The notes below the pieces were generated by a model. The model did not search any database, was not told the DNA's origin, and saw only the letters and a program-made list of their open reading frames with translations. A program made the translations under genes and the position numbers. A stretch of DNA of 64,000 nt. Origin: a virus. Lineage: Duplodnaviria; Caudoviricetes. Shown here piece by piece: positions 3,613 to 34,750 of this stretch. Each line of letters starts with the position of its first letter. The first letter of the stretch is position 1. The stretch lies in the IMG/VR virus record IMGVR_UViG_2974668611_000001, positions 1-64,000 of that record; one strand, given 5' to 3'.

Positions 3613-3823
3613 TTTTGAGTATAGTGTAAGGGCCTAGGGGGAGAGGAAACAACAACAGCTTGCTGTTGGTGTTGACGGTGAGGGGGTGTCCCGATGTCGC
3701 GTCTGGCGACCTCATAGTTAACACAACATGAATGCAACTAAGAGTTCGAGCGTTAGCGAGTTACTCTTAGTTAGTGGCTATGCCACTTATATCTAGTTAC
3801 ATATTATAAAGGAGGAATATATA

Positions 3824-4033
3824 ATGGATTCAAGTGATAACAAGTTAAAGATTATTAAAGCCATTCTATATGCAAGTGATGACATTGACACAGAAGAAAA
3901 ATTAAATGCGGTACGGTACTTAGTTCATGGTTGGGATAACGAACCAGATGGTAGTATTAAATTCAAACAGCCATGGGCAAGCGGTTTATCTGTTGAAACC
4001 AGAAATCTAATTAATGGTAAGTCAGACGACTAA
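3824..4033 (+). CDS. Hypothetical protein, first late-strand gene
   Basis: AAAGGAGG SD, 69 aa ORF. Confidence 0.75.
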   Translation: MDSSDNKLKIIKAILYASDDIDTEEKLNAVRYLVHGWDNEPDGSIKFKQPWASGLSVETRNLINGKSDD

Positions 4034-4261
4034 TATTCTATTAATACATTCAATTCACTAATTCATTCATTATTATACTTTCCTCCACGGGAGATTAATT
4101 TCTCCCGTTACATATACTATGGAATGTGGCGAACACTATCATTACCGTGGGTAATTGAGATGTTGTTCAAAAACTACAGTTCAGTGCACTAACTGGAACG
4201 TCCTGAATGTTTCCTAAGCCTTTCTTATCAGGACAATACATATAAAAAGGGAGGACTTAGC

Positions 4262-4393
4262 ATGACAAAAGAATGTCCGTCATGTTCGACTCCAGTTGAG
4301 ATAAACAAGAAAGATGATTATGTCATTTGTCCTTACTGTGGCAACTTGCTTGAAGTGGACGGTGATGACCTTGAAGAATACACAATCGGGTAG
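4262..4393 (+). CDS. Small zinc-ribbon protein (43 aa, CPSC...CPYC)
   Basis: Not in ORF track. GGGAGG SD then ATG at 4262: MTKECPSCSTPVEINKKDDYVICPYCGNLLEVDGDDLEEYTIG*. Confidence 0.75.
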   Translation: MTKECPSCSTPVEINKKDDYVICPYCGNLLEVDGDDLEEYTIG

Positions 4394-4397
4394 AGAC

Positions 4398-4802
4398 TTG
4401 TCTGTATGTCCTTATTGTGGAATGATTGTAGAAACGAGTTCTCATAATTGTCCTGCAAAAAGGAAGAGAGACAATCGTAATGCAAGGGTTGCACGTCAAA
4501 ATCAAACAGTCACAGAGAAAGCTTTGACATCTCAAAGGTGGCGCTCTTTTAGAAAGAAGATTATTCTAAGAGACGGTGGTGAGTGTCAACGTTGTTTAAT
4601 AAAGCTACACAAACACGTTTATGATGATTTGACTGTACATCACATACAACCACGTGTCAAGCACCCAGAGCTAATGTATGACGAATCAAATTGCGTCACA
4701 CTTTGCCGTGAATGCAACTTAGCTATGGGTCTAAACGGTATCGACTTCGACTGGAATTTAACAAAGACTAAAATAAATTTAGATGATACACTTCATTTCT
4801 AA
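4398..4802 (+). CDS. Terminase-associated HNH endonuclease (HK97 gp74-like)
   Basis: WRSFRKKIILRDGGECQRC...VHHIQP...NCVTLCRECN motif, directly upstream of terS. TTG at 4398 preferred over 4314, which overlaps the zinc-ribbon ORF. Confidence 0.85.
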   Translation: MSVCPYCGMIVETSSHNCPAKRKRDNRNARVARQNQTVTEKALTSQRWRSFRKKIILRDGGECQRCLIKLHKHVYDDLTVHHIQPRVKHPELMYDESNCVTLCRECNLAMGLNGIDFDWNLTKTKINLDDTLHF

Positions 4803-4814
4803 GGGGGTGAACAC

Positions 4815-5321
4815 ATGCCTAACGCTAGAAAGCCTGCGGCGCTAGTTAAAGGTCACAACGAATCGGCTTCTGCTTTAAAGAAAAGAATGGAAGACGAGGA
4901 GCGACTAAAAGGTGCTAACGACGAGGTACGTGTGGCACCTGACTTTATCAAAGGGTGGGAAACCGCTGAAAAATATTACGACTATATTTGTGACTTGTTA
5001 GAGGATTCAGATATTCTGTCTAACTTAGATAGAATGGGGGTGGGCGCACTTGCCGAATGTCTCGCTCGTATGGAAGAGTCAAACAAAGCGATGGCAGATG
5101 ATGGCGGTAGCCTTATGATTACCGTTGAAACCAAGAACGGATATAAGACGGTTGAAAATCCATATATTAAAACTCACCTTAAATTCTTTGATAGGTTCAG
5201 GGTGTTGTCAACACAATATGGGTTGTCACCATCGAGTCGGGCACAGCTAAGCGCGTTAACCATTGAAGATAGAAGTAAAGGCAACAGCGCGCTTGAAAGT
5301 ATTATCAACAGTGATGATTGA
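4815..5321 (+). CDS. terS: Terminase small subunit (P27 family)
   Basis: ENPYIK...YGLSPSSRAQL motif; position after HNH. Confidence 0.9.
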   Translation: MPNARKPAALVKGHNESASALKKRMEDEERLKGANDEVRVAPDFIKGWETAEKYYDYICDLLEDSDILSNLDRMGVGALAECLARMEESNKAMADDGGSLMITVETKNGYKTVENPYIKTHLKFFDRFRVLSTQYGLSPSSRAQLSALTIEDRSKGNSALESIINSDD

Positions 5322-5475
5322 AGATATTACTTCCTAGTCTTGATTAGGCTAGGCTACATAATTAGCTCAAGGAGCAAAATACAGCGAGGTAGTTTAACTC
5401 GCTTATGTTACATAGTAATATGCTTATTTTGGGAGTTGTACCCATTTTAAGAAAGAAAAAGGTAGGTAAAGTCAA

Positions 5476-5988
5476 ATGACAAAATCAAGAAGTATTTATC
5501 AACTTGAAAACTTTGAGCATATGATGCAAAGAGAACGTGATTTGAACTTAGATGTAATTAAGGTTAGCGCTAGGTCTGATGACCAAGCGAACAGTGCATG
5601 TAACTTATTAAAGAAACTTTATTATTATCTTGATTGGATGACTCAGAGAGCAGTTGCTAGTTATAGAGATAAAAATAATGATTCTGGTGGCAGTATGGAC
5701 TTTGATGATGATAAATGCAACGACCGTTTATCTCATATTGTTTACCAACAAATCAACTATGAAGACCCGTTTATTAGAGATTTATCAAGTTGTGAGTGTA
5801 AATTTTTAGGGCCAATTAAAAGTATTCTTAATCGGTTTGGAATGGAAGTGCAAGTCCTTCTGTCATACGTCGGCGCTGGCAACCCTGTCCCCGAAAACTA
5901 TACAGTTGCTGGTGTAGTAAAATTCATGCAAGAAATGCAAGAAACAATCAATGATTTCTTGTCTGGCGAATTAAATTATAATAAATGA
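5476..5988 (+). CDS. Hypothetical protein
   Basis: 170 aa ORF with AAGGTAGGT SD. Confidence 0.75.
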   Translation: MTKSRSIYQLENFEHMMQRERDLNLDVIKVSARSDDQANSACNLLKKLYYYLDWMTQRAVASYRDKNNDSGGSMDFDDDKCNDRLSHIVYQQINYEDPFIRDLSSCECKFLGPIKSILNRFGMEVQVLLSYVGAGNPVPENYTVAGVVKFMQEMQETINDFLSGELNYNK

Positions 5989-6245
5989 CACAGTTTTAAG
6001 TTCCGAGAAGCGCGCATACGAAAGTAAAAGTTCCATAACGGAGTAGCCTTTGGAGGCGAGCATTCTTTTACGAGTAGAAAACCAAGTCTATCTGGTCTAA
6101 CCCCGGTTGAGATAGACAAAGCCCCAATAACATGACACTTAGGGTGCCAGTGCGTTGGGCATACATACCCATTATTTAGGTGTTGAGACATTAAGCATTA
6201 AATCTGACAACACTCCACTGTGTAAAAAGTCTAGCTTAATGTTAT

Positions 6246-6317
6246 TGCTCAGTAGTTCAGTGGTAGAATATCTGACTGTTAATCATATGGTCGCTGGTTC
6301 GAACCCAGCTCGGGCAG
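6246..6317 (+). tRNA. tRNA-Asn(GTT), with stem mismatches
   Basis: Cloverleaf, anticodon loop CT-GTT-AA, T arm GCTGG-TTCGAAC-CCAGC. One mismatch each in acceptor and anticodon stems. No encoded CCA. Confidence 0.8.
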
Positions 6318-6364
6318 TATCATCATATATTTTAGGCTGATAATTTGAAAGAATTTCAACCATA

Positions 6365-6890
6365 ACTATACATAGTGTCAAGCTAGTGTATAAGAGATTG
6401 TCAATCTCGCCTAGCAGTGCTGTCATAATGTGTATTACGTCTATATAGTGATAGCTAGTAGATTTAATAAACCTATTGTTGTAGTGACAAGGGTTGTGGT
6501 GAAAGAAAGCCATCGCGGATTCAGTACTAGATACAAGCTTGTCGATAAATGCATCAACAGTTACGATAGCATAATACGCAGACCCTAAGCTAATGTTAGT
6601 GTGATAACTAGCAGAACCAAGTAGGGAAATCAGTAAGCTATTTTCTAGTTGATGGAGGGTAATTCCTCCTATAAGTAACTAGTTGAGTATTAGTAGGGTA
6701 AATCTAGGAATACAAATATAAAAATATTATATGTAGAAATATAAATATAAAATATTATATGCCTAAAGACATCTGAAAGTTATCAGTCATCGTGCTGGAT
6801 TACACATTATAATGGAACAACAGCTAGCTTGGTAGCTCCTAGTTAGTAGGCGTTGTTCAGTGTATGGCAGAATATATCGTAAAAGCTAAA
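6365..6890 (+). ncRNA. Large structured ncRNA, ROOL-like
   Basis: ORF-free ~550 nt between tRNAs with nested long-range pairings: 6379-6386/6824-6831, 6425-6434/6801-6810, 6459-6466/6699-6706. Size and tRNA-island context fit ROOL. Boundaries approximate. Confidence 0.65.
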
Positions 6891-6924
6891 GTATACTACG
6901 CAAGCCAATGCGGACACTTGTATT

Positions 6925-6997
6925 GCTCTCGTAATCCAACGGCAGAGATAGTGGTCTTAGAAGCCATCCAGTGTGGGTCCGAATCCCACCGAGAGCA
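6925..6997 (+). tRNA. tRNA-Leu(TAG), short variable loop
   Basis: GCTCTCG/CGAGAGC acceptor, GTGGT-CT-TAG-AA-GCCAT anticodon arm, T arm GTGGG-TCCGAAT-CCCAC, A discriminator. Confidence 0.8.
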
Positions 6998-6998
6998 T

Positions 6999-7072
6999 TG
7001 CGGTGGAGTGAAACGGAAAATCACGAAAGGCTCATAACCTTTAAATAGCAGGTCCGACTCCTGCCACCGCAA
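6999..7072 (+). tRNA. tRNA with CAT anticodon (Met, initiator-like; Ile2 not excluded)
   Basis: TGCGGTG/CACCGCA acceptor, AAAGG-CT-CAT-AA-CCTTT anticodon arm, GCAGG-TCCGACT-CCTGC T arm. Confidence 0.8.
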
Positions 7073-7142
7073 CTACCAAAGGGTAGAGTTCCTAGTTTGG
7101 AACTAGAAGGTTATAGGACATACATTGAAAGAGAGGAAAACT

Positions 7143-7403
7143 ATGACAAGTAATGAATTTGTTGAAAAATGCACTAAATTAGTAAGAGACTATACTAACG
7201 AGCATATGGATAAAACTGACAATACTAGTATTAGTAATCAGGATGTATATGTAGTTTGGTATAGTAAGACTCTTCAAAACCACAAGGCGTTATTAAGCAC
7301 AACAGTATCTGACGGTATGTACTATGAATTAACATATAATGGCGATAAAGAAGACTTATACTTTGACGCCTATAAGAAGTTTGAAAATAGATGTATTAAA
7401 TAG
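7143..7403 (+). CDS. DUF6275-like phage protein
   Basis: VYVVWYSKTLQNHKALLST...YYELTYNGDK..LYFDAYKK signature; GAGAGG SD before ATG 7143. Confidence 0.75.
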   Translation: MTSNEFVEKCTKLVRDYTNEHMDKTDNTSISNQDVYVVWYSKTLQNHKALLSTTVSDGMYYELTYNGDKEDLYFDAYKKFENRCIK

Positions 7404-7412
7404 ATTTAATAC

Positions 7413-7626
7413 GTGCTTGTGGCGGAATAGTAGACGCTATGACAGATAGACAAAGGGTTGGAATTAAGGTAGCGGTAAATGGCGACACATAAATGTATCC
7501 GAGTAGCTACTGCCCTTCAAAAATAGATGGATAGTAATTCTGCCGTGGAGTTAGTCCGATAAGACCATATCCGTGTCTAAGTCATCTATAACAGGTCATG
7601 TAGGGTGCAAATCCCTACCAAGCACA
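7413..7626 (+). ncRNA. tRNA-shell RNA A (tRNA acceptor/D/T arms enclosing a ~160-nt structured insert)
   Basis: 5' GTGCTTGTGGCGGAATAGTAGACGC, 3' GTAGGGTGCAAATCCCTACCAAGCACA. Internal stems ATGAC/GTCAT, TAGACA/TGTCTA, AAGGG/CCCTT, GTAGC/GCTAC. Confidence 0.7.
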
Positions 7627-7741
7627 TAAAGCCACTATGTAAGGATACTAGCATCCTAAAAATGTCTAGAGAAACGTATGATAGTATCACGGGTGTGGCG
7701 GTGACTGGAGACATCAATATATGTCTCTGCTATCATAAATT

Positions 7742-7814
7742 GCTCCCCTAGTGTAATTGGATAACACACCAGACTTCCAATCTGGTAATGTCGGTTCGAG
7801 TCCGGCTGGGAGCT
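7742..7814 (+). tRNA. tRNA-Gly(TCC)
   Basis: CCAGA-CT-TCC-AA-TCTGG anticodon arm, TTCGAGT T loop, U discriminator as expected for Gly. Confidence 0.9.
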
Positions 7815-7933
7815 TGTAGCTTAATTTCAATAAAGTAAAACGTTTCTCGGTGTTTTCTTTCCATGTTCTTTTATGCCGAGGGTACATAAAATGTAGATTT
7901 TACAGTCTATATTATAGCATATAACGAGGTGAT

Positions 7934-9646
7934 ATGTTGAAAAATAAAGAAATTTTCGACCACCCAGCGTATCAGTATGCTCTAAAAGTTCATAATGGGG
8001 AAACTCTGGCTAATAAAGATGTTAAAATCGTTGCCGACAGGTTTATCAAAGAGGTTAACGACAGTCTTAGTGGCAAGGGTGACTACTATTTTGATATTAA
8101 CGCGCTTAATCGTGTTTCAAAACTATTAAAATTAATTATTATGGCAACTGGCCCACGTCGTGGTCAGAGTGCATATGACTCACTGGCTGGTTTTCAGTGG
8201 TTTTTCTTTGTTAACATCTTTTGTTGGCGTCATAAAGAGAATCACAAGCTGAGAAGATACCAAACAGCAACAATGTTAATTCCACGTAAGAATGGTAAGA
8301 CCTTCATTTCTGCTGTTATTTTCATTTTGTTGCTTATCTTAGAGCCAAAATATTCAAAGTTTTACTCTGTGGCACCAGATTTAGAGTTATCTTCAATGTT
8401 AAAGACACAAATTGACTCATTAATTGATGGTTCGCCTGAATTAGCACGATTTTTTAAGGTTAACAACAAGGATATTACGTGTTTGTTGACTAAAAATAGC
8501 TATAAACCACTAGCTAACAGTAATAATCGTCTTGACGCGCGTGAACCAGTAGCATTTTTGGCCGATGAAGTTGGGGCTTTGCCTAATAGCTACCCAATTA
8601 ACGCCATGAAGTCTGGTCAGACGTTGGTTGATAACCCGTTGGGTATTATCATCTCAACTGCCTACGATTCTCTCGACAATCCAATGACACAAGAAATTCA
8701 ACGTGCCACTGACAAGATTACTGACGGAGAACTGTATGACCCAACGTATTTTGCGTTGATTTATAGGCCAGATAAGCCTAAAGAGTGGGCCACAAACGAT
8801 GAAGAATTGATAAAAGTCAACCCACTATCACAAGAAATACCAAAAGTCAAAGAACGTTTATTAAACGAGCGAGAAGACGCCGTTAATTATGAAGATAAGC
8901 GTCAAAACTTCTTAACAAAGTACATGAACATCTTCGTTGATGGTGATGAAGGTGAGCAATTTACGACCGAAAGTGAGCTTGATAGAGCCGAATTACCACA
9001 AGGACTTGATTGGTATGGCCGTGATGTATTCGTGGGCCTTGACTTTGCCGAAAGTCATGATAACTTTGGTTTAGCCATGGTTACATTTGATGAAGGACAC
9101 CAAAAGTACGTTGCTAAAGCATGGTCGTTTTTCCCAGCAGACCGAATGGTTGCTAAAACAAAGGTTGAAGGCTGGGATTACCAACACTCCGAAAATGAAG
9201 GTTGGGGGTTCTCTTCTGGTCATGAAACAATTGATTATGGTTTTGTGGAAGATTTCTTCTACAATATCGAATCAAAGTATGGTGTTAAGATTAAAGGATT
9301 CGGTTACGATAAGTGGAATGCACGTTCTACGGTCGCTAAGTTTATTACCAGTGGCTATGATGGTGTTGAAATTCAACAGAATCCACGTGGGTTATATCCA
9401 GGGACAAAGCTTCTACGTGAAGCCTTGCAGAACGGAAACTTTGCGTATGATAAAAATGATATGCTACGTCAGAACTTCTTAAACGCTAAGATGGTCACTG
9501 ATAGTAATTTATCATACTTTTTAAACAAGAAAAAGTCAAGCGGCAAGATTGATATGGCCGCCGCGGTTGTTGACGCCATGTCGTTGTGGGAGATTGAAGA
9601 ATTCTCAAACATTATGGGTGGTGCAAGCAACATCACATTACTTTAA
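7934..9646 (+). CDS. terL: Terminase large subunit (HK97/Terminase_1 type)
   Basis: Walker A IPRKNGKT, Walker B FLADEV, nuclease GLDFA and KIDMAAA motifs. Confidence 0.95.
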   Translation: MLKNKEIFDHPAYQYALKVHNGETLANKDVKIVADRFIKEVNDSLSGKGDYYFDINALNRVSKLLKLIIMATGPRRGQSAYDSLAGFQWFFFVNIFCWRHKENHKLRRYQTATMLIPRKNGKTFISAVIFILLLILEPKYSKFYSVAPDLELSSMLKTQIDSLIDGSPELARFFKVNNKDITCLLTKNSYKPLANSNNRLDAREPVAFLADEVGALPNSYPINAMKSGQTLVDNPLGIIISTAYDSLDNPMTQEIQRATDKITDGELYDPTYFALIYRPDKPKEWATNDEELIKVNPLSQEIPKVKERLLNEREDAVNYEDKRQNFLTKYMNIFVDGDEGEQFTTESELDRAELPQGLDWYGRDVFVGLDFAESHDNFGLAMVTFDEGHQKYVAKAWSFFPADRMVAKTKVEGWDYQHSENEGWGFSSGHETIDYGFVEDFFYNIESKYGVKIKGFGYDKWNARSTVAKFITSGYDGVEIQQNPRGLYPGTKLLREALQNGNFAYDKNDMLRQNFLNAKMVTDSNLSYFLNKKKSSGKIDMAAAVVDAMSLWEIEEFSNIMGGASNITLL

Positions 9647-9661
9647 AAGGGGTGAGTTTAA

Positions 9662-11137
9662 ATCGCTAATAAAAATAATAAATGGTCTTTGAAGAGTATC
9701 TTCAAAATTCCATTTAGCCAGCAACAGCCGGGGCAAGATAGTCGTGGCGGTACTTTTGTTCGTTCACAGACTGGTACAGGGCCGTTAGCCTTCACGGGTG
9801 ACGATACACCTATCACAGAAGATACGGTTATGGAGATTCCGGCGTTCAGTGCGGCGTTAGCGTTGGTTGCTGACACGGTAGCTTCTCTCGACATTTTGTT
9901 GATGAAGACAAGTGACCAAGGTGTCCCACTTCCTGTTAAAGATGACGAACGAGTATTAATGCTTAATAAGCAAGCGAACGAGGAGATGTCCGCTTTCACG
10001 TATAAGCGTTCAGTTGTTAAAGACTTGTTACTATACGGTCGTTCGCTAACTTACATTGAACGAACTGGCAAAAACAAGATTAATGCTATTTATCCTTTAG
10101 CTTCTCGTTATGTTACTACCGAAGTTTATACTTATGGTGGTTATAAATATTATGGTGTTTATACCTATAACTCAGAAGCTGGTTCATTTGAATACGATGA
10201 AGAAGACCTAATGAATGTAATCTCGGATTCACAAGACGGTATTACAGCAGATGGTATTATGGCAAACTATACCGGGACGCTTCAATTAGCATTAGCGCAA
10301 CGTGATTATGAAAAAAATCTATTGTCTAACGGTGCGGTTCCTGTTGGTGCTGTGCGTTCTGATAGAGCAGTAGCACCTGAAATCCTTGATAAATTAAAGG
10401 AACAGTTCGCCTCATCTTATTCTGGTGCGGGTAATTCTGGTAAGACGCTATTCCTAGAAGGTGGCTTGTCTTATCAACAGATTAGTACGAACCCAGACAA
10501 TATGCAATTGGACTCTAGTAAGAAGAGCATGTTAGGTGAAATTGCTCGTATGTTTAACTTACCAGAAACACTTATTAACGCTAGTGCTAATAAGTATAAC
10601 TCTAATGAGCAGAACAACCTGCAATTCTTCCAATATTGTTTAAAGCCAATTTTATCAAGTTTTGAAGCCGCAATCAACAAGGAATTGTTGTTGGAATCTG
10701 AAAAAGATGAAGGTTACTTCTTCAAGTTTGATACAGACACTATTATGCAAAATACCTTCAAAGAAAAGGTCGCCGCATATGGTGCTTTATACAAGCAAGG
10801 ACTTATTAGTTATGATGAATTTCGTAACAAGTTTGGCTTTAGCAATATCGAAGGGGAAGACTTTATTAACCTTAGCCTTGGTTCTGTTCTTTACTATCCT
10901 AAGACTGGTGAAATGAAGATTCCTAACTTAGGTATCGCTGGAGGTGCTGACGTTGCCGGACAGGATTCAGGAGACCCTACACAGGTTACTCCTAAGAATC
11001 AACCAATCGGTACCATCACCCCAAACAAGAAGCCGGGAGAAAAGCAAGGTATTCAAAAAGCTCCTAACCAAAAGAATCAAGATGACAGCCATCAAACAAA
11101 GGCTGATAATAATGTGTTAGGAGGTAATGACAATTAA
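9662..11137 (+). CDS. Portal protein (HK97 family)
   Basis: EIARMFNLP, NSNEQNNLQF, F-K-F-D motifs; position after terL. Track start is TTG 9689; the SD favours ATC 9662. Confidence 0.93.
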   Translation: MANKNNKWSLKSIFKIPFSQQQPGQDSRGGTFVRSQTGTGPLAFTGDDTPITEDTVMEIPAFSAALALVADTVASLDILLMKTSDQGVPLPVKDDERVLMLNKQANEEMSAFTYKRSVVKDLLLYGRSLTYIERTGKNKINAIYPLASRYVTTEVYTYGGYKYYGVYTYNSEAGSFEYDEEDLMNVISDSQDGITADGIMANYTGTLQLALAQRDYEKNLLSNGAVPVGAVRSDRAVAPEILDKLKEQFASSYSGAGNSGKTLFLEGGLSYQQISTNPDNMQLDSSKKSMLGEIARMFNLPETLINASANKYNSNEQNNLQFFQYCLKPILSSFEAAINKELLLESEKDEGYFFKFDTDTIMQNTFKEKVAAYGALYKQGLISYDEFRNKFGFSNIEGEDFINLSLGSVLYYPKTGEMKIPNLGIAGGADVAGQDSGDPTQVTPKNQPIGTITPNKKPGEKQGIQKAPNQKNQDDSHQTKADNNVLGGNDN

Positions 11138-12236
11138 GCAAAAAGAATTACGAACACTTAGTTTCGAGACGCGAGATTTGTCTTTTGATGATAAATCTTT
11201 AAAGGTCTCTGGATATGTTAACAAAGCTGGCTCTTACAGTCAGGTGATGTCCGCTGACGGTACCCCGTTTCGTGAAACTATTTTACCACAAGCGTTTGTT
11301 GAAGCTGTTGCAACAGAAGACCCAATTGATTTTTATGCAGAGCATGACGACCAAAAGTTGCTTGCAACAACTGTCAATCATTCATTAACGCTACGTGCAG
11401 ACGATAACGGTCTGTATATGGAAGCACAAATCTTAGATACGAATGATGGTCGTGACACGTATGAGCTTATTAAAAGCGGTGTTATTACGAGTATGAGTTT
11501 CGGATTTATTGTTCTTGATGATGATTGGGACATGACAGGTGGTACGTTCGATGATGGTATTCCATTAAGGACTGTCAAAGAAATCATTTTGAAAGAAGTA
11601 TCTGCGGTACGTTTTCCTGCCTATCTAAGTTCTAGCATTGAAGCTCGTGGTATTCAGGAGCTAAAGAAGCTTGAACACAGAGGTATTAATAGCGTATCGG
11701 AAGTTGTTAATATTAAGGAGGGAAACGAATTGGAATTACGAGACGTAGAAACTAAGGAATTATTTGCTGAGCTAGAACGGCGCGCAAAGCTTCCTGCAAA
11801 TGAAGTTATTGTAAAGCCTGCTAAGCGTGATGATGAACCAGATGATACTAGTGAAACACAGGTGGCGTCTGAAACAGATGTCACTGCCTTGTCTCCAGCG
11901 AGTCAAATTGATGTTGACGAATTAGCTAAGCAAATTATTGCTTCTGTATTAGATGGGCTTCAAACTTCATTAGCACAACGTGATGGTGAGGAAGATGTTC
12001 CTGAACCAGATGGTTCTGACATGGCGACAGATGACGACACTGAAACTGACTCAATGAAGCCAGCTAAGGGTGCTAAGTCTGGTGAAAAACGTGATGACGA
12101 ATCAGACGATACTGACGAATCCGATGATGACACTGAAACTGATTCTAAGACCAGCAAGAAAGCTTCTAAGAGTGCTGAAAAGCGCAGTATGGAAGCACGG
12201 GAATTATTGAAACAAATTAACGATTTGGAGGTCTAA
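11127..12236 (+). CDS. Prohead protease (HK97-type) with acidic C-terminal extension
   Basis: FRETILPQAF, EHD, SMSFGF, EVSAVRFPAY motifs. Confidence 0.92.
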   Translation: MTIKQKELRTLSFETRDLSFDDKSLKVSGYVNKAGSYSQVMSADGTPFRETILPQAFVEAVATEDPIDFYAEHDDQKLLATTVNHSLTLRADDNGLYMEAQILDTNDGRDTYELIKSGVITSMSFGFIVLDDDWDMTGGTFDDGIPLRTVKEIILKEVSAVRFPAYLSSSIEARGIQELKKLEHRGINSVSEVVNIKEGNELELRDVETKELFAELERRAKLPANEVIVKPAKRDDEPDDTSETQVASETDVTALSPASQIDVDELAKQIIASVLDGLQTSLAQRDGEEDVPEPDGSDMATDDDTETDSMKPAKGAKSGEKRDDESDDTDESDDDTETDSKTSKKASKSAEKRSMEARELLKQINDLEV

Positions 12237-12239
12237 TTA

Positions 12240-13526
12240 ATGAAGACAAAAAAGGGTTTGCTTGAAAAGCGTTCAGCATTAAAAGGTAAGCTGGACGAAT
12301 TCAAGCCTGCTATTGAAGATGGTACCGTTACTGACGCGCAATTAGAAGAAATGCGTTCTATCAAGTCAGACATTGTATCAGTTAACGATGAAATTGCAAA
12401 TTTAGATGAACAACGGCATAATGCCGTACCTACAAAAGATGAAACTAGGGGTGCTGAAAAGATGGATAAAGATTTGAAGAAATTAGAAAAGCGCGCGGCC
12501 GCTGACCTATTCCGTAACAAATTGCGGGACAGCAAGGCAGTTCATGACTACCTTGAAGTTGCAAAGGAACATGACAAGGACGTTGACGTAGAAGACCGCG
12601 CCTTACAAGACAACGGTTTATCATGGGGCAACGCCGTAAACGGCACCGCTTCTGACGGTGGTGTTGTTATTCCCACCACTGTTTCCGATACTATTATTGA
12701 AAAGTTACAAGAAACTTCTCCAGTGTTTGCATTGGCTAACAAGCTGGGTTCAATCACTGGTAACTTGCGGGTAGCTCGCGAAACTGACAACTCTGATGAT
12801 GGTTTCGTTGGTGAACTTGAAGAAGTCAAGGCACAAACCCCAACTTTGAAATACGTTGAATTAACGCAAAAGCGTGTCGGTGCCTCAATGCAACTATCTA
12901 ACATGATGATTAATGACGGTGCGCCTGACATCGTTAGCTACGCCGTTGGTCGTTTGGGTCGTTCATTAGGTAAGGCCATCGAACGTGCCGTATTAGTTGG
13001 CGCTAAGACTGGTGAAGACGCTACGAAGACTTTCAAACCAGTTGTTGGTGGTGATGGTGTCCAAACTGTTACTTTGGCTGGTGCAACTCCTACGTTAGAC
13101 GAATTAATTGGTTTAACGACTGCACTTAACCCTGCATACTTGGGACAAGCCGTATTCGTTATGTCTCGTGAAGCATTCAACGCTGTATCTAAGTTGAAGG
13201 ACGATGACAACGAACACTTAATCTTCAAGCCACAAATGCAAACTGCTATTGCGGGTGCTGTTGGTGTTCGTCCAGGATACTCATTCCAAGGTATTCCTGT
13301 ATTTGTATCTGACCAACTTAACGGCAACGCTAATGGCCAAATCGTGTTAGGTAACTTTAACGCTGGTTACACTATTATGACTAAGCAAGGTTTGCGGTTA
13401 ACTCACGTTACGGCTGATACGCAACAGGCACTTGCTGGTGGTCACTTAGTCGTTCTTGATGGTTACATGGACGGTGCTGTTACGAACCCTGACGCATTCG
13501 TGGTTGCTAAGCCTGCGAGTAAGTAA
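12240..13526 (+). CDS. Major capsid protein (HK97 fold, N-terminal delta domain)
   Basis: Coiled-coil N-terminus, GGVVIPTTVSDTIIE, VGEL, GIPV, GNF and DG..TNPDAF motifs. Confidence 0.95.
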   Translation: MKTKKGLLEKRSALKGKLDEFKPAIEDGTVTDAQLEEMRSIKSDIVSVNDEIANLDEQRHNAVPTKDETRGAEKMDKDLKKLEKRAAADLFRNKLRDSKAVHDYLEVAKEHDKDVDVEDRALQDNGLSWGNAVNGTASDGGVVIPTTVSDTIIEKLQETSPVFALANKLGSITGNLRVARETDNSDDGFVGELEEVKAQTPTLKYVELTQKRVGASMQLSNMMINDGAPDIVSYAVGRLGRSLGKAIERAVLVGAKTGEDATKTFKPVVGGDGVQTVTLAGATPTLDELIGLTTALNPAYLGQAVFVMSREAFNAVSKLKDDDNEHLIFKPQMQTAIAGAVGVRPGYSFQGIPVFVSDQLNGNANGQIVLGNFNAGYTIMTKQGLRLTHVTADTQQALAGGHLVVLDGYMDGAVTNPDAFVVAKPASK

Positions 13527-13590
13527 TCCGGCGCCAACGGTCACTAACGTTACCCCTGACGTGAATAGTGCTACGGTGGTAGCTAAGTAA
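13525..13590 (+). other. +1-frame C-terminal extension of major capsid protein (NPAPTVTNVTPDVNSATVVAK*)
   Basis: Open in the +1 frame across the MCP stop, with no start codon or SD of its own; homologous to the tail extension at 16315-16386. Confidence 0.7.
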
Positions 13591-13656
13591 TAAATCCGAT
13601 TATTAACCTCCTCGTTTGAGGAGGTGTACATACCTACATGATAGGAGGGAATACTA

Positions 13657-14115
13657 TTGGCACAAAACTTTGATATTTACGATGACAAAGATGAAAAGAT
13701 TGTAACCAATCAACCATCTCCAGTTGTAATCTCAGATTTAAACCCGGCTACTAAGTATTCTGGTTATAAGATTGCTTATACTGGTAAAGATTCAAAGACA
13801 ACGATTGATGATTTTACAACCACCAACCAAGTACCTGGTAAGCCAACATTGATGGCTAAGGCTGGCGACGGCAAGATTGATGTTATCTTCACCGATGGTG
13901 CAAACCTAGGTACAGTAGTTACTAAGCGTACTGTTTACTGGAAGTCAGCAGACGGTAAGACTGGTACGGCTGATTTGGGTCAAACTTCTAGCGGTTCAGT
14001 TGACGGTTTGACGAACGGTACAGAATATACCTTGCAAGGTGTATGTACAAACGCCGCTGGTGACTCTGAAAAGTCAGATGAAGTAACAGCTACTCCAGTT
14101 TCAGCGGCTGGATAA
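13657..14115 (+). CDS. Fibronectin type III (Ig-like) virion decoration protein: truncated FN3 plus complete FN3
   Basis: ISDLNPATKY and VDGLTNGTEYTLQGVCTNAAGDSEKS FN3 signatures; AGGAGG SD with TTG start. Confidence 0.85.
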   Translation: MAQNFDIYDDKDEKIVTNQPSPVVISDLNPATKYSGYKIAYTGKDSKTTIDDFTTTNQVPGKPTLMAKAGDGKIDVIFTDGANLGTVVTKRTVYWKSADGKTGTADLGQTSSGSVDGLTNGTEYTLQGVCTNAAGDSEKSDEVTATPVSAAG

Positions 14116-14152
14116 CTCTACCCCATTTTGGGGTACATAGGAGGTGTGATAG

Positions 14153-14440
14153 ATGTCAGTGACCGTTAATGATTTTAAAAACCAAATTAACGCAGATTCA
14201 GATGAAGATGTTGATTTATATTTTAACCATGCTGTTGATTACGTTAATTTTTATGTATCAAAAATTACAGGTCAGTTCGCTGGTGAACGTGAAAAACAAT
14301 TTGAGTCTACCATAGATAGAGCTATATTGGAAGTAGCCACAACCTTGTATCTAAAGCGTGATGGTGCACCTGTCAGTGGCACTATTAATTCCTCATCACT
14401 AGAAACCATTATTAATTATGGCAGGAACTTTTCCATTTAG
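14153..14440 (+). CDS. Head-tail connector (gp6/gp15-like)
   Basis: AVDYV..Y...RAILEVATTLYLKR pattern; synteny. Confidence 0.8.
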   Translation: MSVTVNDFKNQINADSDEDVDLYFNHAVDYVNFYVSKITGQFAGEREKQFESTIDRAILEVATTLYLKRDGAPVSGTINSSSLETIINYGRNFSI

Positions 14441-14452
14441 TGAGGTGAGAAA

Positions 14453-15323: not shown

Positions 15324-15326
15324 GAT

Positions 15327-15704: not shown

Positions 15705-15722
15705 AGAAAGAGGTAATTACTA

Positions 15723-16334: not shown

Positions 16335-16386
16335 GATTGCGTCGATAACCCCAAGTATAACAAGTGCTACTATCGTGGCAGAATAG
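16315..16386 (+). other. +1-frame C-terminal extension of major tail protein (PAEPAPKIASITPSITSATIVAE*)
   Basis: Entered by a +1 shift at ACC-CCC-AGC; homologous to the capsid extension. Confidence 0.75.
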
Positions 16387-16462
16387 TCTCTATGCGCCTC
16401 ATCGAGGGGCGCGTCTACATATCCAAAAATAAAATATTTAGATGAAAGACGAGGAGATTCAT

Positions 16463-17039: not shown

Positions 17040-17070
17040 TGTTATTGTTTTTTTTCTTGTTTTGTTGGTT

Positions 17071-17098
17071 AAGTTCGCTTTGGCGGGCTTGTTTTTTT
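17071..17098 (+). terminator. Intrinsic terminator-like hairpin before tape measure gene
   Basis: AAGTTCGC-TTTG-GCGGGCTT followed by GTTTTTTT. Confidence 0.6.
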
Positions 17099-17114
17099 GC
17101 AAGGAGGGTTTTAA

Positions 17115-22778: not shown

Positions 22779-22834
22779 CTAATACGAGGGGTAATCCCCT
22801 CGTGTACATAATGATTGAATGGGAGGTAAAACCA

Positions 22835-24613
22835 TTGGCACTAAAAGAAGATGAATTTAGTCTAGGCGGTCTTAATAGCCGCACAGACTTACACGTTATT
22901 ATGGGAATGGTGCTCCCACCAATTGCACCAGCAATGTCAGAATTGTCAACCGATATTCCTGCTAAATATGGTGTTCACTTTGGCGGTATTGATTATACCA
23001 CTAAGACAATCAATATTCCAATTACAATCATGGCACCGCATAATTCACAGTCATATATTGATTACGCACAAACTTTGGCTGGTTTGCTATTAACAGACGA
23101 ACCAGATAATGACCAAGAAATTCCATTAGTATTTGGATTCCAACCTGATTTAACTTATTGGGGTCACATCACTTCAATCTCTGACCCACAAGTAACGCAA
23201 GAAGGGGCTTGGGATTCGACATCTACGATTACATTCGTTATGTCTGACCCTAGAGCAACTTTACCACAAGTTGAGGTTGGTTTAAAGCCTGGATTAAACG
23301 TTATCACCGTTGACGGAACAGCACAAACAGAACCAGTCATTCAGATTATCCCTTCTAAAGCATTGAAATACGTCGGGTATACACTTAATGGCGGTAATTA
23401 CGGTATTGGCCCAGAAGACCCATTGGAGCAAGCACAGGCTGTTCAGGAGTGGGAGAAGGTATTAGACGACCCTGTTGAAACAATGGCAATGTGGACTAAT
23501 GACGCAGGTGCTATTGGCGGTCTTATTCCGCCTAACGGTGGTGACTATACTGTATTCCAAGGTGAAGCGATGATTAACGATGCCACTTCTGCTATGACAG
23601 TTAAACGTGACCCCGGTGGTGCTAACCAGCAGTTCGGTACTCATCAAACTGGTTGGTATGGCCCGGCTTTAAGATATACTGGTTTGACACAGTCACTCAC
23701 AGATTGGCGTTTAAGAGCCGGTATTCATCATGGACGATATGGTGGCACTCATAATGAGCGTGCGATGGGTGCAGTTCAATTCCAATGGACTGACACTGGC
23801 GGTAAGGCAATCGGTAATTTCTGTATCGTAGACCCCGGGCAAAACGGTCGTCCGCGTTGTCGTTTACAAATTTGTCAGCCAGGTTCAGTTCTAGCTCCCG
23901 GTGATGGTAAACACCGTGACCTATTGACCACAACAGGGCCTAGTGGAGCTTTCACAAACAAGAAAGACACAGCAGTTAAAATCAAAACTGGAACCAAAAC
24001 AGTTAAAAAGACAGTTAAGACTAAAGCCAAGAACGGCAAGGTAACTAAGAAGACTATCAATCAAAAGGTAGATACTTACGTCACCGTTTGGAACCGTCAA
24101 GAAACTGGGGCCCTAACAGATGGTTGGATTAAGATGGATATGCAACATGTCGGCCAGACGTGGAGTTGGTCTGTTATTCAGTATAACACTGACAACGGAC
24201 AGCCATATACTAACCCTAACAAGTATTTAATCACTCACTCGCAACAGCCAATTAACACTGGTGATAAGTACCAAACAGCACTGGGTGGTTTTGGTATCAT
24301 GTTCTTAAAGCATTCTATCACAGAAGACGATAAAAAGATTGATTATAAGGCGCCTTATATGTCATTAACTGGTATTGAACTGTGGAAGCATAATGATGTT
24401 CCAGATTCTTCAACACCAACATATATCGCCAGCTCTGGTTCTGAAATTGTCATGGACTCAGAAGCACAGCGGACAACTATCGGTGGTCGGATTTCATACC
24501 CAGTATGGTCTACCAGCTATCCAAAGTTAAAGCCGGGCTTAAACTCGCTTAACATGGTTGGCGACCTAGAAGGTGCAAAAATGGTATTAAAATATTTACC
24601 AAGAAAACTTTAA
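22835..24613 (+). CDS. Distal tail protein (evolved Dit with large insertion)
   Basis: Dit-like N-terminus (ITFVMSDP) and C-terminus (YPKLKPGLNSL); GGGAGGT SD before TTG 22835. Confidence 0.85.
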   Translation: MALKEDEFSLGGLNSRTDLHVIMGMVLPPIAPAMSELSTDIPAKYGVHFGGIDYTTKTINIPITIMAPHNSQSYIDYAQTLAGLLLTDEPDNDQEIPLVFGFQPDLTYWGHITSISDPQVTQEGAWDSTSTITFVMSDPRATLPQVEVGLKPGLNVITVDGTAQTEPVIQIIPSKALKYVGYTLNGGNYGIGPEDPLEQAQAVQEWEKVLDDPVETMAMWTNDAGAIGGLIPPNGGDYTVFQGEAMINDATSAMTVKRDPGGANQQFGTHQTGWYGPALRYTGLTQSLTDWRLRAGIHHGRYGGTHNERAMGAVQFQWTDTGGKAIGNFCIVDPGQNGRPRCRLQICQPGSVLAPGDGKHRDLLTTTGPSGAFTNKKDTAVKIKTGTKTVKKTVKTKAKNGKVTKKTINQKVDTYVTVWNRQETGALTDGWIKMDMQHVGQTWSWSVIQYNTDNGQPYTNPNKYLITHSQQPINTGDKYQTALGGFGIMFLKHSITEDDKKIDYKAPYMSLTGIELWKHNDVPDSSTPTYIASSGSEIVMDSEAQRTTIGGRISYPVWSTSYPKLKPGLNSLNMVGDLEGAKMVLKYLPRKL

Positions 24614-24668
24614 TAACAACAAGGGATAAAATCCCTTGATACATAAATAATGATTAGGAGGTAATGGA

Positions 24669-31061: not shown

Positions 31062-31077
31062 AAAGGAATGATTTGGT

Positions 31078-32277: not shown

Positions 32278-32350
32278 CAATAAAATTTGAATTTTACTCT
32301 GAAATAAACTATTGATAAGTGAACATTAATATATAAAAGGAGACAAAAAG

Positions 32351-33742
32351 ATGAACAAACGACTAAAACACGTACTATATGGTACTGCATTAGCATTATC
32401 GTTAGGATTATCTGCTTCTGCTATTAGCACGCAGAATGCCAGTGCCGCCAACACTAGTGATGGTGCCATTGTTAAGAAAGTGGTCGATATTTCGGAATGG
32501 CAAGGTAATGTGTCTTATCAGAAAGCTTTAGCTTTGAAATCTGAAACTTCATTTGTAATTGTCCGTGTTCAATACGGTTCTAATTACCAGGACGTTCAAT
32601 ACAAGAACACGATTGCCAACCTCGAAAAGGCCGGGACACCATATGGTGTTTATTCTTATTCACGCTATGTGAATGCTTCTGACGCCAAACAAGAAGCTAA
32701 AGATTTATACAGTCGTGCTAAGAATGCTAAGTTCTTTGTTAACGACGCAGAAGAAGTTACTACGACTAGTGGCTCTTATTCCAGTGCTGTTAAGGCTTGG
32801 GGTGCTGAAATGCAAAGTCTCACCAGCAAACCAGTTATCTTATATTCTGGTAGTTATTTCTACAATAATTATATTGGAACCATGAGCAACTATGACGCTT
32901 TCTGGGAAGCTAACTATAGCAACCATTATCTCAAAGACCCAGCATTATGGCAATACACAGATTCTGGTTATTCAACTAGTCTTGGCTTAGGTGTTGATAC
33001 CAACAAGGTTATCACGTCTAAACACCCTGTGAAGTGGTGGATTGGTTCTAGTGCGGCTGACAAGCAGAACGTAGACAAGTATCACGTTGGCGGATTCAAG
33101 GTTGGCGACAAGGTTAAGATTAACTCTAACGTCGCTAAATGGGACGCTGGCGATACTAAGACTCCAATTGATAGTTCTGTACTAAAGAAGACCTATACTG
33201 TTGGTCAAATCAAGCAAGTAACGGAAGGTAAATCTAACCAGATGCTCTTGTTAAAGAGTGGCAACACTGTTGTTGGTTGGACGTTAGCTGAACACGTTAC
33301 GAAGCAAGGTTCTAGCTCAAACTCTAGCTCATCTAACAGCAACAAGGCTTCCAGCCAGACCTATAACCAAAACGGTACGTTCTACCCAAACACTACTCTG
33401 AATGTTCGTACTGGCGCTGGTACCAACTATTCTAAGGTAGCCACTTATTACAGCGGCGAAAGTGTTAAGTATAACCAAGTAATCATCAAGTCTGACTATG
33501 TGTGGGCTAGATATTTACGTTCTAACGGTTATTATGGATATATTGCTCTGGGCGTAAGCGGTGGCGAAAGCTACGGCAAGCGTGTTGTCGGCTCTTCTCA
33601 TACCTATTATACAGTTAAATCTGGTGACAGTCTATGGAAGATTGCCAATGACCATGGGACTACGATTAGTAATTTAACTAGTCTTAACGGAATTTCGATG
33701 TATAGCACAATCTATCCAAACCAACGACTAATTATCAGCTGA
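32351..33742 (+). CDS. Endolysin: signal peptide, GH25 muramidase, SH3 domain(s), LysM
   Basis: N-terminal Sec signal (ASA), VDISEWQG, DAEE, WQYT, LNVRTGAGTNY, YTVKSGDSLWKIA. Confidence 0.93.
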   Translation: MNKRLKHVLYGTALALSLGLSASAISTQNASAANTSDGAIVKKVVDISEWQGNVSYQKALALKSETSFVIVRVQYGSNYQDVQYKNTIANLEKAGTPYGVYSYSRYVNASDAKQEAKDLYSRAKNAKFFVNDAEEVTTTSGSYSSAVKAWGAEMQSLTSKPVILYSGSYFYNNYIGTMSNYDAFWEANYSNHYLKDPALWQYTDSGYSTSLGLGVDTNKVITSKHPVKWWIGSSAADKQNVDKYHVGGFKVGDKVKINSNVAKWDAGDTKTPIDSSVLKKTYTVGQIKQVTEGKSNQMLLLKSGNTVVGWTLAEHVTKQGSSSNSSSSNSNKASSQTYNQNGTFYPNTTLNVRTGAGTNYSKVATYYSGESVKYNQVIIKSDYVWARYLRSNGYYGYIALGVSGGESYGKRVVGSSHTYYTVKSGDSLWKIANDHGTTISNLTSLNGISMYSTIYPNQRLIIS

Positions 33743-33759
33743 TAAGGGAGGTTCACCAC

Positions 33760-34098
33760 ATGGTATTGAGTAACATTATTGCCGCCGTTCCGCCTCATTA
33801 TTTTTTTGGGTATAATCTCAGTGAGTGGACGGAATTGATTGCCATTGTGAGTGCTTTTTTATCACTAGTTTCTTGGCTGTTTAAACGTGTTATTATTGAC
33901 CCGTTAATGGAAAAGATTAGTGACTTAGGTGACAGTATTAAGCAACTGTCTGCTACGCAGAATGAAGACTCTAATACGTTTATGCAAACGTTAGAGAAAC
34001 ACACCGAAGAACTTGGCGAAGTTAAGATTACAATGGCGAGGCACGATGAAGAATTAAGGTCTCTTTGGAAGGGGAGAAATAAACATGGACAAGATTAA
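33760..34098 (+). CDS. Holin-accessory / XhlA-like membrane protein
   Basis: One TM helix plus coiled coil; in lysis cassette. Confidence 0.65.
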   Translation: MVLSNIIAAVPPHYFFGYNLSEWTELIAIVSAFLSLVSWLFKRVIIDPLMEKISDLGDSIKQLSATQNEDSNTFMQTLEKHTEELGEVKITMARHDEELRSLWKGRNKHGQD

Positions 34099-34693
34099 AA
34101 CTGCATTTAACAACTTTATTGCTCAATTCGTAAAAACATTTGAAGCTAACAAGACCAAGCCTAGCTACTGGTTACAAATTATTGGTTCCATTTTAATTAT
34201 CGGTTTGGCTATTGGCTCAGCATTCTTTGGCTTGAAGATTGACCGCAGTGATGTTCTTATGACGTTTACGGTTATTGGTTCAGTGCTCGCATTCGTGGGT
34301 ACTGTTACAGATAACTCTATCCTTGAAAACGTCGGCAACGGTATTAAAGACGATTCTGACAGCTTAACGAATAGCGAACAGGACGTTCTTAACAAGCTTG
34401 TTGAAGCTCAAAAGGCTATTGAAAATGCAAAGAAGCCTGCTGAAAAGGCGCAGTTGGCATTGAGTGCCGCTAACGAAGCCCAATCCGTAGCGGATAGTTT
34501 AGCAAGTGAGTTATCTAAAGAAGCCGTTTCAGACGCAAGCGTTAATCCACAGGTTGTGACGCAGGCCGTAACTAGTGAATCAGCTAGTGTTGCTGAACCA
34601 GCTAGTGCTATTTCAGAAGCGCCGGTAAGTGAAGCCACGTCAGAAGTTTCTAGCGAAGCTCCTGTTAGTGAAGTTCCTTCTAGCGAAGCCTAG
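34085..34693 (+). CDS. Holin with Ser/Glu/Ala-rich C-terminal tail
   Basis: Two TM helices in the N-terminal half; after endolysin. Confidence 0.7.
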   Translation: MDKIKTAFNNFIAQFVKTFEANKTKPSYWLQIIGSILIIGLAIGSAFFGLKIDRSDVLMTFTVIGSVLAFVGTVTDNSILENVGNGIKDDSDSLTNSEQDVLNKLVEAQKAIENAKKPAEKAQLALSAANEAQSVADSLASELSKEAVSDASVNPQVVTQAVTSESASVAEPASAISEAPVSEATSEVSSEAPVSEVPSSEA

Positions 34694-34750
34694 TATTAAT
34701 CCTCACATTATGTGGGGGTACATAAAATATAAAGGGAATGGTGAGATACA

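Follow-up and report, generated by a model that had tools for sequence, protein, structure and literature searches.

Hairpin-TACATA elements between the late genes of a relative of Lactiplantibacillus phage Gut-P1: candidate cut sites for EndoA-type MazF endoribonucleases

The genome and its hairpin-TACATA sites

The virus record IMGVR_UViG_2974668611_000001 (Caudoviricetes) is 80,617 bp long. The window analysed comprises its first 64 kb (64,000 nucleotides, nt), and genome-wide counts refer to the whole 80.6 kb. Between the late genes of this phage lies a recurrent element, a hairpin followed by the hexamer TACATA, whose RNA form equals the cut site of MazF endoribonucleases of the EndoA type. 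The structural region is 90.6% identical to that of Lactiplantibacillus phage Gut-P1, approximately 85% identical to those of phages P1, P2, Maenad and Satyr, and approximately 74% identical to those of SA-C12, Nyseid and Lenus. In the public records, Maenad and SA-C12 are assigned to the subfamily Tybeckvirinae. Gene orientation divides the genome into four blocks (1-3760, -; 3761-36000, +; 36001-56700, -; 56701 to the end, +), the second of which carries the packaging, head, tail and lysis genes. Genome-wide, 119 open reading frames (ORFs) were called. All were scanned against Pfam, and the 55 without a clear Pfam function were also scanned against PHROGs.

An earlier note on this DNA listed 14 + strand copies of TACATA between 3770 and 34724, each preceded by an inverted repeat. 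All 14 are present, no other + strand copy occurs in that interval and none (0/14) lies within a called ORF. Every hexamer has its inverted repeat at a distance of 0-10 nt on the upstream side: 11 of the 14 sites have a gap of 0-2 nt, and 5409, 6369 and 3798 have gaps of 5, 9 and 10 nt, respectively. Folding of 46 nt per site returned a stem-loop in all 14 cases, with variable strength relative to shuffled sequence. At 4109, 13627, 14134, 22805 and 24640 only 0-1 of 200 shuffles folded as well, at eight of the 14 sites 3-15 of 200 did so, and the hairpin at 6162 is at chance level (61/200). The note had also described the hairpins as unrelated in sequence and distinct from ordinary terminators by the absence of a U-tract. 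Both descriptions were confirmed: the stems are unrelated, with loops of 3-25 nt, and a terminator scan of 3700-23000 flagged none of the hairpin-TACATA sites there.

Downstream of the late hexamers, a Shine-Dalgarno sequence follows 0-26 nt on, or tRNA genes are flanked. The predicted probability that the hexamer is unpaired is 0.60-0.72 at hairpin-linked sites, compared with 0.45 at random positions. Contrary to the earlier note, the signal is not confined to the late region. In the early regions, hairpin-linked copies (149-144, 2735-2730, 47060-47055 and 55305-55300) occupy the - strand, as do the genes around them. The copy before the phage mazF gene (47055-47092) is kept in SA-C12; Maenad has a different promoter there. 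The sites and related features are collected in the table.

Table. Hairpin-TACATA sites, other TACATA copies and the phage mazF gene (coordinates of the window)
Feature	Position	Strand	Basis
Hairpin (6-bp stem, 3-nt loop), 10-nt gap, TACATA; ATG 3824 lies 20 nt on	3773..3803	+	z -1.49
Hairpin (8 bp), TACATA directly after	4087..4114	+	z -4.97; 0/200 shuffles as good
Hairpin (7 bp, long loop), 2 nt, TACATA, then Shine-Dalgarno	4200..4242	+	z -2.63
Hairpin (8 bp, one G-U), 1 nt, TACATA; 3′ of small terminase gene	5333..5360	+	z -1.48
Hairpin (6 bp), 5 nt, TACATA; kept in Maenad and SA-C12	5383..5414	+	folding
Weak long-loop hairpin, 2 nt, TACATA; tRNA-Asn 78 nt downstream	6123..6167	+	z -0.43
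Weak A/U hairpin, 9 nt, TACATA; tRNA-Asn 51 nt upstream	6345..6374	+	-4.7 kcal/mol
Long-loop hairpin, 1 nt, TACATA; gap between tRNA-Gly and large terminase; kept in Maenad	7845..7888	+	z -2.37
Site A: hairpin (8 bp), G, TACATA; just 3′ of major capsid gene	13606..13632	+	z -4.06
Site B: hairpin (5-7 bp), TACATA, directly followed by GGAGG of head-tail connector gene	14121..14139	+	z -3.41
Site C: hairpin (9 bp), 1 nt, TACATA; just 3′ of tail tube gene	16392..16421	+	folding
Site D: hairpin (9-10 bp), TACATA; gap between tape measure and distal tail protein (Dit) genes	22783..22810	+	z -4.77
Site E: hairpin (8 bp), A, TACATA; gap between Dit gene and next tail gene	24620..24645	+	z -5.47
Hairpin (7-9 bp), 1 nt, TACATA; 5′ of integrase-like gene; kept in Maenad, SA-C12 and one related locus	34701..34724	+	folding
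Early-region hairpin, TTT, TACATA	144..170	-	sequence
Early-region hairpin in promoter spacer; TACATA overlaps last -10 base of TTGACA-18-TATGAT	2730..2760	-	sequence
Consensus promoter TTGACA-17-TATAAT, ATA, TACATA; no hairpin	3424..3461	-	sequence
Promoter TTGACA-17-TATGCT, spacer a 9-bp hairpin, TACATA; mazF ATG 21 nt on	47055..47092	-	sequence
Early-region 10-bp hairpin, TACATA directly after; TTGACA/TATAAT promoter downstream	55300..55330	-	sequence
Sole sense-strand TACATA within any called ORF genome-wide (ORF 45804-46337); not kept in Maenad	46114..46119	-	ORF count
Phage mazF, 120-amino-acid PemK/MazF endoribonuclease homologue	46671..47033	-	PF02452 E 3.1e-21; PHROG 'MazF-like growth inhibitor'

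Strand-specific distribution and conservation

The hexamer on its own is not enriched: shuffled versions of the window average 56.7 +/- 7.6 copies over the two strands, and the window itself has 46. The enrichment lies in its link to a hairpin. A fold scan of the 80,617 bp placed 9 of 60 TACATA copies after a hairpin of -10 kcal/mol or lower, compared with 1.06% of positions, and more hairpin-linked copies were found only for TTTTTT (13/152), the mark of ordinary terminators. Assigned by the four strand blocks, the 60 copies comprise 1 sense and 27 antisense copies in ORFs, and 26 sense and 6 antisense intergenic copies. A strict hairpin link, defined as a hairpin of -7 kcal/mol or lower ending within 3 nt, is present in 13/26 sense copies and 0/34 antisense copies, totals that derive from an automatic gene caller. 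The earlier note had expected the combination to be scarcer both in early regions and on the opposite strand; the strand difference is borne out by these antisense copies, and the element does occur in early regions too.

Within ORFs, the single sense copy compares with 12.2 +/- 3.2 expected from synonymous-codon shuffles of the 119 ORFs, none of 300 shuffles being as low. The reverse complement is not depleted (27 vs 26.1 expected). The deficit is seen in the late block (0 vs 4.2) and in the other blocks (1 vs 8.2), and TACATA ranks third in depletion among 2160 hexamers without a depleted complement. ORF 45807-46337 has a weak NCBIfam match to LoaP (E 0.0012, 19 bits vs a cut-off of 125), which was not used. 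Sense intergenic sequence is 3.5-fold above expectation under a first-order Markov model (26 vs 7.5 +/- 2.6; 0/500 simulations as high), and antisense intergenic sequence stands at 5 vs 9.6 in the same model. Selection on the RNA-like strand, and on that strand alone, therefore removes the hexamer from messages and favours it between cistrons. As the purge affects sense ORF copies alone, with antisense copies at expectation, it points to RNA rather than DNA.

Two further causes of the purge were rejected. A codon artefact is ruled out by depletion in all three reading frames (5/28.1, 7/48.6 and 10/69.1 in eight phages pooled) and by the specificity of the effect, TACATA being the most depleted among 19 one-mismatch neighbours in four of five phage groups, with TACATC second in three of those four. 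Avoidance at the DNA level, as by restriction, is ruled out by the complement, which is not depleted; restriction-like palindromes are depleted on both strands.

The same distribution is seen in related phages. Maenad has 3 sense ORF copies vs 11.3 expected and 13 sense to 2 antisense intergenic copies, and SA-C12 has 3 vs 15.1 and 17 to 7. Further sense ORF purges were found in ATCCB (2 vs 17.3), Semele (5 vs 37.0) and Enterocloster phage PMBT24 (8 vs 30.7), with a weak one in TR-TP1 (16 vs 25.9). The antisense strand is depleted in none of the control phages. Eight Lactobacillaceae phages pooled contain 22 sense ORF copies vs approximately 146 expected, a deficit that holds with or without a mazF gene. 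Strict hairpin-linked intergenic copies number 13 in the genome studied here, 11 in Maenad, 10 in SA-C12 and 9 in ATCCB, compared with 1 in LP65, 2 in Sha1 and 3 in PM411. It is by their large number that this lineage stands out. In a 400-kb stretch of a Lactiplantibacillus chromosome, sampled to represent the host, sense ORFs are moderately depleted (15 vs 37.9; antisense 42 vs 52.8), with TACATC at 46 vs 63.6, which suggests that MazF shapes the host transcriptome too. No hairpin-linked sense intergenic TACATA was found in this sample.

A Dit-based search yielded 11 related loci, comprising five known relatives and six metagenome fragments. Five orthologous late sites (post-capsid, pre-connector, post-tail tube, pre-Dit and post-Dit) were compared across the window and these loci. 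In 40/40 orthologous instances the hairpin ends 0-2 nt before an unchanged TACATA, and the hairpins comprise 32 distinct sequences. An alignment of site D has six invariant TACATA columns at a mean column identity of 71%. MAFFT placed unrelated site D stems in different registers, where covariation counts would mislead, so each instance was folded separately. It is the presence of a hairpin, not its sequence, that is conserved, the stems having been replaced wholesale between lineages. Changing stems beside a fixed hexamer are the mark left by an RNA structure coupled with a sequence-specific site.

MazF of the phage and of its host

Three sources bear on the activity that the hexamer recalls. 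It has been reported that MazF of B. subtilis (EndoA, gene ndoA) has a strict six-base site, U^ACAUA, and that UACAUA is cut by MazF of B. subtilis, L. monocytogenes and S. aureus in a reporter, the S. aureus enzyme having weak extra activity on UACAUC (10.64898/2026.08.06.743204). Ends dependent on ndoA have been mapped in vivo at U/ACAUA, with UACAU cut only when A is next and a 5′ hydroxyl left (PMC11780869). The substrate of MazF is single-stranded RNA (PMC8634880). Exact UACAUA is present on the transcribed strand in the 27 of 60 genomic copies that are sense (26 intergenic), including all 14 late copies. The avoidance profile, with TACATA first and TACATC second, likewise matches EndoA-type specificity. 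A search of public RNA data returned contigs of approximately 85-95% similar relatives only (one run recorded as RNA, three guessed), and contigs cannot show RNA ends such as the 5′-OH and 2′,3′-cyclic phosphate between U and A expected of MazF.

The phage encodes a MazF homologue on the - strand (46671-47033), so the statement in the earlier note that the responsible factor was not encoded in this window would be wrong if MazF is that factor. The PF02452 match scores 76 bits against a cut-off of 23.1 and spans positions 1-108 of the 109-position profile. Among solved structures the protein is closest to those of the UACAU clade, namely B. subtilis EndoA (4MDX, 1NE8 and 4ME7; E 7e-16), the B. 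anthracis enzyme (4HKE) and S. aureus MazF; Kid and mycobacterial MazFs (MazF9) match near 1e-5 only. Phage residues Arg33, Pro34, Asn44 and Thr56 align with Arg25, Pro26, Asn36 and Thr48 of MazF-Bs, the roles of which are set out in PMC8634880.

Neither neighbouring ORF (47126-47443 and 46330-46680) has a Pfam or NCBIfam family, and their PHROG families are without assigned function. A protein-atlas search for an antitoxin beside mazF gave sub-threshold leads only. For the two ORFs downstream, all atlas matches were below 0.9, including a weak RNase H-like match at 0.89, and none was used. A mazEF type II toxin-antitoxin system is recognised by an adjacent antitoxin gene; judged from its surroundings, the phage mazF appears to be solitary. 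A homologue was found in every named relative, with identities of 95% in Gut-P1, 72% in P1, P2, Maenad and Satyr, and 56% in Lenus, SA-C12 and Nyseid. With more distant homologues, relatives of the gene occur in 96 phage records in all. A scan of genome contigs for close bacterial relatives of the phage MazF gave 74 pattern matches, of which 0 were confirmed.

Host genomes were reached through a flavoprotein gene in the approximately 9 kb host flank of the PM411 record, which led to Lactiplantibacillus genomes. One of these has a MazF of 130 amino acids (E 2e-50 to EndoA), the gene of which adjoins the alanine racemase gene (alr). An alr-linked MazF of EndoA type is present in 23/23 genomes of the host genus, the gene being in two pieces in two of them. 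The split copies form two overlapping pieces near residue 75 and look frameshifted. MazF has been said to be absent from 'Lactobacillus' (10.64898/2026.08.06.743204). This does not hold for Lactiplantibacillus, because MazF relatives occur in all 23. One Lactiplantibacillus genome also has a second chromosomal PemK-family toxin of 121 amino acids, the start of which is overlapped by a 72-amino-acid ORF in the usual antitoxin-toxin order.

No PemK-family gene was found in LP65, Sha1 or PM411 (0/3), and these phages rule out a tie between the phage mazF and the ORF purge. As these mazF-less phages are purged and host ORFs are depleted, the simplest cause of the purge is a host-type MazF. Psychrobacillus phage Perkons also encodes a PemK/MazF protein and is not short of TACATA (146 forward and 91 reverse vs 149 and 97 in the controls); a different specificity of its enzyme or host is possible.

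Proposed intercistronic cleavage and its alternatives

The hairpin-TACATA sites are probably intercistronic cut sites of an EndoA-type MazF that leave hairpin-protected 3′ ends. The earlier note had offered a termination or cleavage signal as an alternative to a promoter. The cleavage or processing part of that proposal is supported, as the hexamer is a MazF site and both the phage and its host genus encode MazF; intrinsic termination falls away, there being no U-run. Long polycistronic late transcripts are to be expected from the lack of a good + strand sigma-A promoter and the small number of terminators. With MazF active in the infected cell, such transcripts would be cut only at the installed sites, whether by the solitary phage MazF, by the alr-linked enzyme of the host or by both together. 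Cleavage would leave the upstream product with a terminal hairpin and one or two further nt, a poor substrate for 3′ exonucleases, and the protected ends would fall after the capsid, tail tube and tape measure genes. Stem-loop 3′ ends should resist decay by 3′ exonucleases. The downstream product would have ACAUA at its 5′ end, with a Shine-Dalgarno sequence 0-26 nt further on or a tRNA nearby. It may be inferred that such cleavage, by whichever enzyme, stabilises or balances the cistrons. A phage MazF without an antitoxin could also free cutting from control by host MazE. Global host shut-off is unlikely as the main role of the phage enzyme, few host genes carrying the site (15 vs 37.9 in 400 kb).

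A bolder reading, put forward tentatively as it is on balance doubtful, is that the Tybeckvirinae lineage turned a toxin-antitoxin nuclease into an operon-maturation enzyme, keeping a MazF without antitoxin, erasing U^ACAUA from its ORFs and installing it after intercistronic stem-loops. If true, MazF, whose activity ordinarily belongs to stress or defence responses of the host, would divide phage transcripts into cistrons capped by hairpins. Host messages still carrying the site would also be cut, and proper late gene expression would depend on the cuts.

Several observations weigh against the MazF cut-site reading. The ORFs of the mazF-less phages are also purged (LP65 2 vs 31.5, PM411 0 vs 11.3 and Sha1 3 vs 8.0), so the phage mazF gene is not needed to explain the avoidance. 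PM411 has three sites of the form hairpin-TTTT-TACATA-Shine-Dalgarno, so the arrangement is not exclusive to mazF-carrying phages; the second site of two related loci has this form too. The phage enzyme is 37% identical to the host MazF, the specificity of both being assigned by sequence only. Its loop matching Gly18 and Glu20 of MazF-Bs differs and has a three-residue insertion, and it has Gln at MazF-Bs position 85 (Arg85 in MazF-Da numbering, PMC8634880). Of the 14 hairpins, five or six are weak or lie 5-10 nt from the hexamer. Some folds draw the first one or two hexamer bases into the base of the stem, a potential obstacle for an enzyme specific to single strands. The hexamer may, moreover, have a second role in transcription, several early copies lying at predicted sigma-A-like start points.

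These early promoters have the form TTGACA-N17-TAnnnT, ATA, TACATA at 3461-3424 and 47092-47055, and at 2764-2730 TACATA overlaps the last -10 base. Five promoters of the same form occur in Semele (record positions 86044, 92964, 104553, 107821 and 136025), with TACATA 1-3 nt after TAnnnT. The spacer often forms a perfect hairpin, the 3′ arm of which includes the -10 box, an arrangement common to a siphovirus and a myovirus of L. plantarum. The usual start, approximately 7 nt after the -10 box, would be the fourth base of the hexamer, so that primary transcripts would lack the full site and read-through transcripts would carry it. Such a placement might give primary and processed messages matching 5′ ends; alternatively, it might reflect an independent start-site preference.

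The earlier note had favoured a late promoter for a phage RNA polymerase. In this account TACATA and the stem-loop would direct host RNA polymerase with a phage factor, or an unrecognised phage polymerase. The note was correct that the late region lacks consensus promoters: the best + strand match (10/12, at 3796-3825) overlaps a start codon, no match exists at the other late sites, and the -35/-10 pair of sigma-70/sigma-A promoters with 16-18 nt spacing is absent from them. This lack of a good + strand sigma-A-type promoter counts in favour of the account. The position of TACATA directly downstream of the -10 box in the early promoters and the five of Semele, with the predicted start inside the hexamer, agrees with such a function, and the order of hairpin and start recalls the promoters of the N4 virion polymerase. 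Promoters of the N4 type are defined by a short, conserved hairpin that has particular bases and a loop of 3 nt, accompanied by a virion RNA polymerase gene. Here the hairpin sequences and their loops (3-25 nt) are unrelated. The search of the rest of the genome that the note had advised found no RNA polymerase or sigma factor in the 80.6 kb (119 ORFs with Pfam, 55 of them with PHROGs), and no unassigned ORF is large enough for a polymerase. At 14134, GGAGG starts directly after TACATA, so that a hexamer in a -10 role would start the transcript inside or beyond the Shine-Dalgarno sequence. Six bases invariant in 40/40 instances are unusual for promoter boxes, and the avoidance is sense-only though stray antisense promoters would be at least as harmful. 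The same purge is found in phages of other families and of an Enterocloster host, and the signal occurs early as well as late. A late promoter is thus unlikely. Other familiar signals fit no better: intrinsic terminators have a U-run directly after the stem where these sites have TACATA, and RNase III sites are long duplexes cleaved 2 bp apart on opposite sides, 10-36 bp in B. subtilis (PMC11780869), against stems of 5-10 bp here. Clear terminator-like sites are few (17070-17091 and approximately 35997-36026). Within the late block the only clear ones are two hairpins followed by T-runs at 17028-17100 (+), where the tail chaperone region ends and shortly ahead of the tape measure gene.

Two other accounts do not treat the elements as processing sites. 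One holds that the hexamer serves another intergenic job, such as a protein-binding or translation signal, with the hairpin blocking MazF, so that these sites would be the very ones left uncut. The hairpin does end 0-2 nt from the scissile U-A and includes the first hexamer bases in some folds, and MazF is described as acting on single-stranded RNA (PMC8634880). Yet the hexamer lies mostly outside the stem (unpaired 0.60-0.72), where burial within it would protect better, no second function is in evidence, and a needed hexamer that equals a nuclease site would be a coincidence, which makes shielding quite improbable. The other holds that MazF merely clears the ORFs, the intergenic copies being functionless leftovers beside ordinary stabiliser or terminator hairpins. 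Purged mazF-less phages with few intergenic copies (LP65 has 8 sense and 11 antisense) would fit this, and cutting between cistrons may be harmless. Leftovers would not be expected to reach 3.5-fold above expectation, a level found in 0/500 simulations, or to be kept in 40/40 orthologous instances while hairpins and flanks diverge. Nor would they account for the absence of hairpin links from all 34 antisense copies, or of any hairpin-linked sense intergenic copy from the 400-kb host sample. This account is very improbable.

Intercistronic cleavage by MazF would have partial parallels in other phages. In T7, structured intercistronic signals in long transcripts are processed by RNase III, after which a stem-loop protects the 3′ end of the upstream mRNA. 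That enzyme requires no hexamer, its cuts falling within extended duplex stems; the sites described here share the intercistronic structure but have stems of 5-10 bp and a conserved single-stranded hexamer beside the stem. RegB of T4 is a phage-encoded, sequence-specific endoribonuclease that targets GGAG in Shine-Dalgarno regions and inactivates early messages. It resembles the proposed system as a phage-borne RNase acting on short motifs in mRNAs, but is unrelated to MazF and does not separate cistrons. By analogy, the hairpin-TACATA sites would work like the T7 RNase III sites and T4 RegB while belonging to neither family. A G+C-rich stem-loop at a gene end is shared with intrinsic terminators; the U-run is not.

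The sites also resemble the EndoA/MazF-Bs sites of Bacillota: the transcribed strand carries the same six bases, the host genus has a MazF of EndoA type, and the phage has a MazF homologue. The sites of B. subtilis MazF are reported to lie mostly inside coding sequences and to lower mRNA levels (10.64898/2026.08.06.743204), whereas here ORFs are cleared and the sites, at which cleavage is proposed, follow intercistronic hairpins. For SPbeta/phi3T, 10.1101/2023.04.27.537455 reports that host EndoA-type MazF acts on phage RNA and shapes infection, that the phage transcripts are enriched in UACAU and that the MazF inhibitors AimX and YosL are carried. The present lineage is the opposite, with the site purged and a MazF of its own. 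Under-representation of ACA, the E. coli MazF site, in RNA phages has been attributed to MazF (PMC12151602). That case differs in its three-base motif, RNA genomes and Gram-negative host, and is without installed processing sites. No earlier description of hairpin-UACAUA sites, or of a UACAUA purge in these phages, was found in the literature covered, which left supplements and most subscription journals outside; the Gut-P1 paper does not mention MazF, PemK, a promoter or a terminator.

The match to a nuclease site accounts for an orphan motif, and its exactness makes the idea directly testable. The data suggest that MazF shapes phage genomes, those of Lactobacillaceae phages and of an Enterocloster phage alike, and offer a concrete candidate role for the 'MazF-like growth inhibitor' genes annotated in many phages. 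From phage genomes alone, strand-specific motif avoidance could help to predict which sites RNA-targeting defence nucleases recognise. The compact hairpin-plus-hexamer is a possible RNA-level insulator for the engineering of lactic acid bacteria.

Other features of the genome were recorded. The lysis module closes with a gene resembling tyrosine recombinases/integrases (34751-35722, +), upstream of which is one of the hairpin-TACATA sites. Pfam supports this assignment weakly (Phage_int_SAM_1 E 1.1e-5; Phage_integrase E 1.9e-5, below cut-off). Gut-P1, a close relative, is described as virulent (PMC10269749). The gene for a PolC-like DNA polymerase III alpha subunit is in two - strand ORFs: 39467-40897 encodes the PHP domain and the N-terminal part, and 36027-38501 the finger and HhH domains. 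Between them, an ORF containing a NUMOD3 motif (38645-39424) has the look of an inserted homing endonuclease. Outside the window, large non-coding regions include CA/TA-rich repeat tracts (genome 75397-75734 and 79917-80100) with several TACATA copies on both strands, and SA-C12 has a similar tract at approximately 40148-40248. These copies are not hairpin-linked, and the tracts may be an origin or regulatory repeats. Restriction-like words are strongly avoided in ORFs on both strands across the whole genome, which is consistent with escape from several restriction systems. ORF counts against expectation are 0-1 vs 14-24 for GATC-containing hexamers, 0 vs 17 for TTCGAA, 1 vs 19 for ATCGAT, 0 vs 16 for TGATCA, 3 vs 24 for CTGAAG, 4 vs 24 for GGATGA and 4 vs 14.5 for TACGTA.

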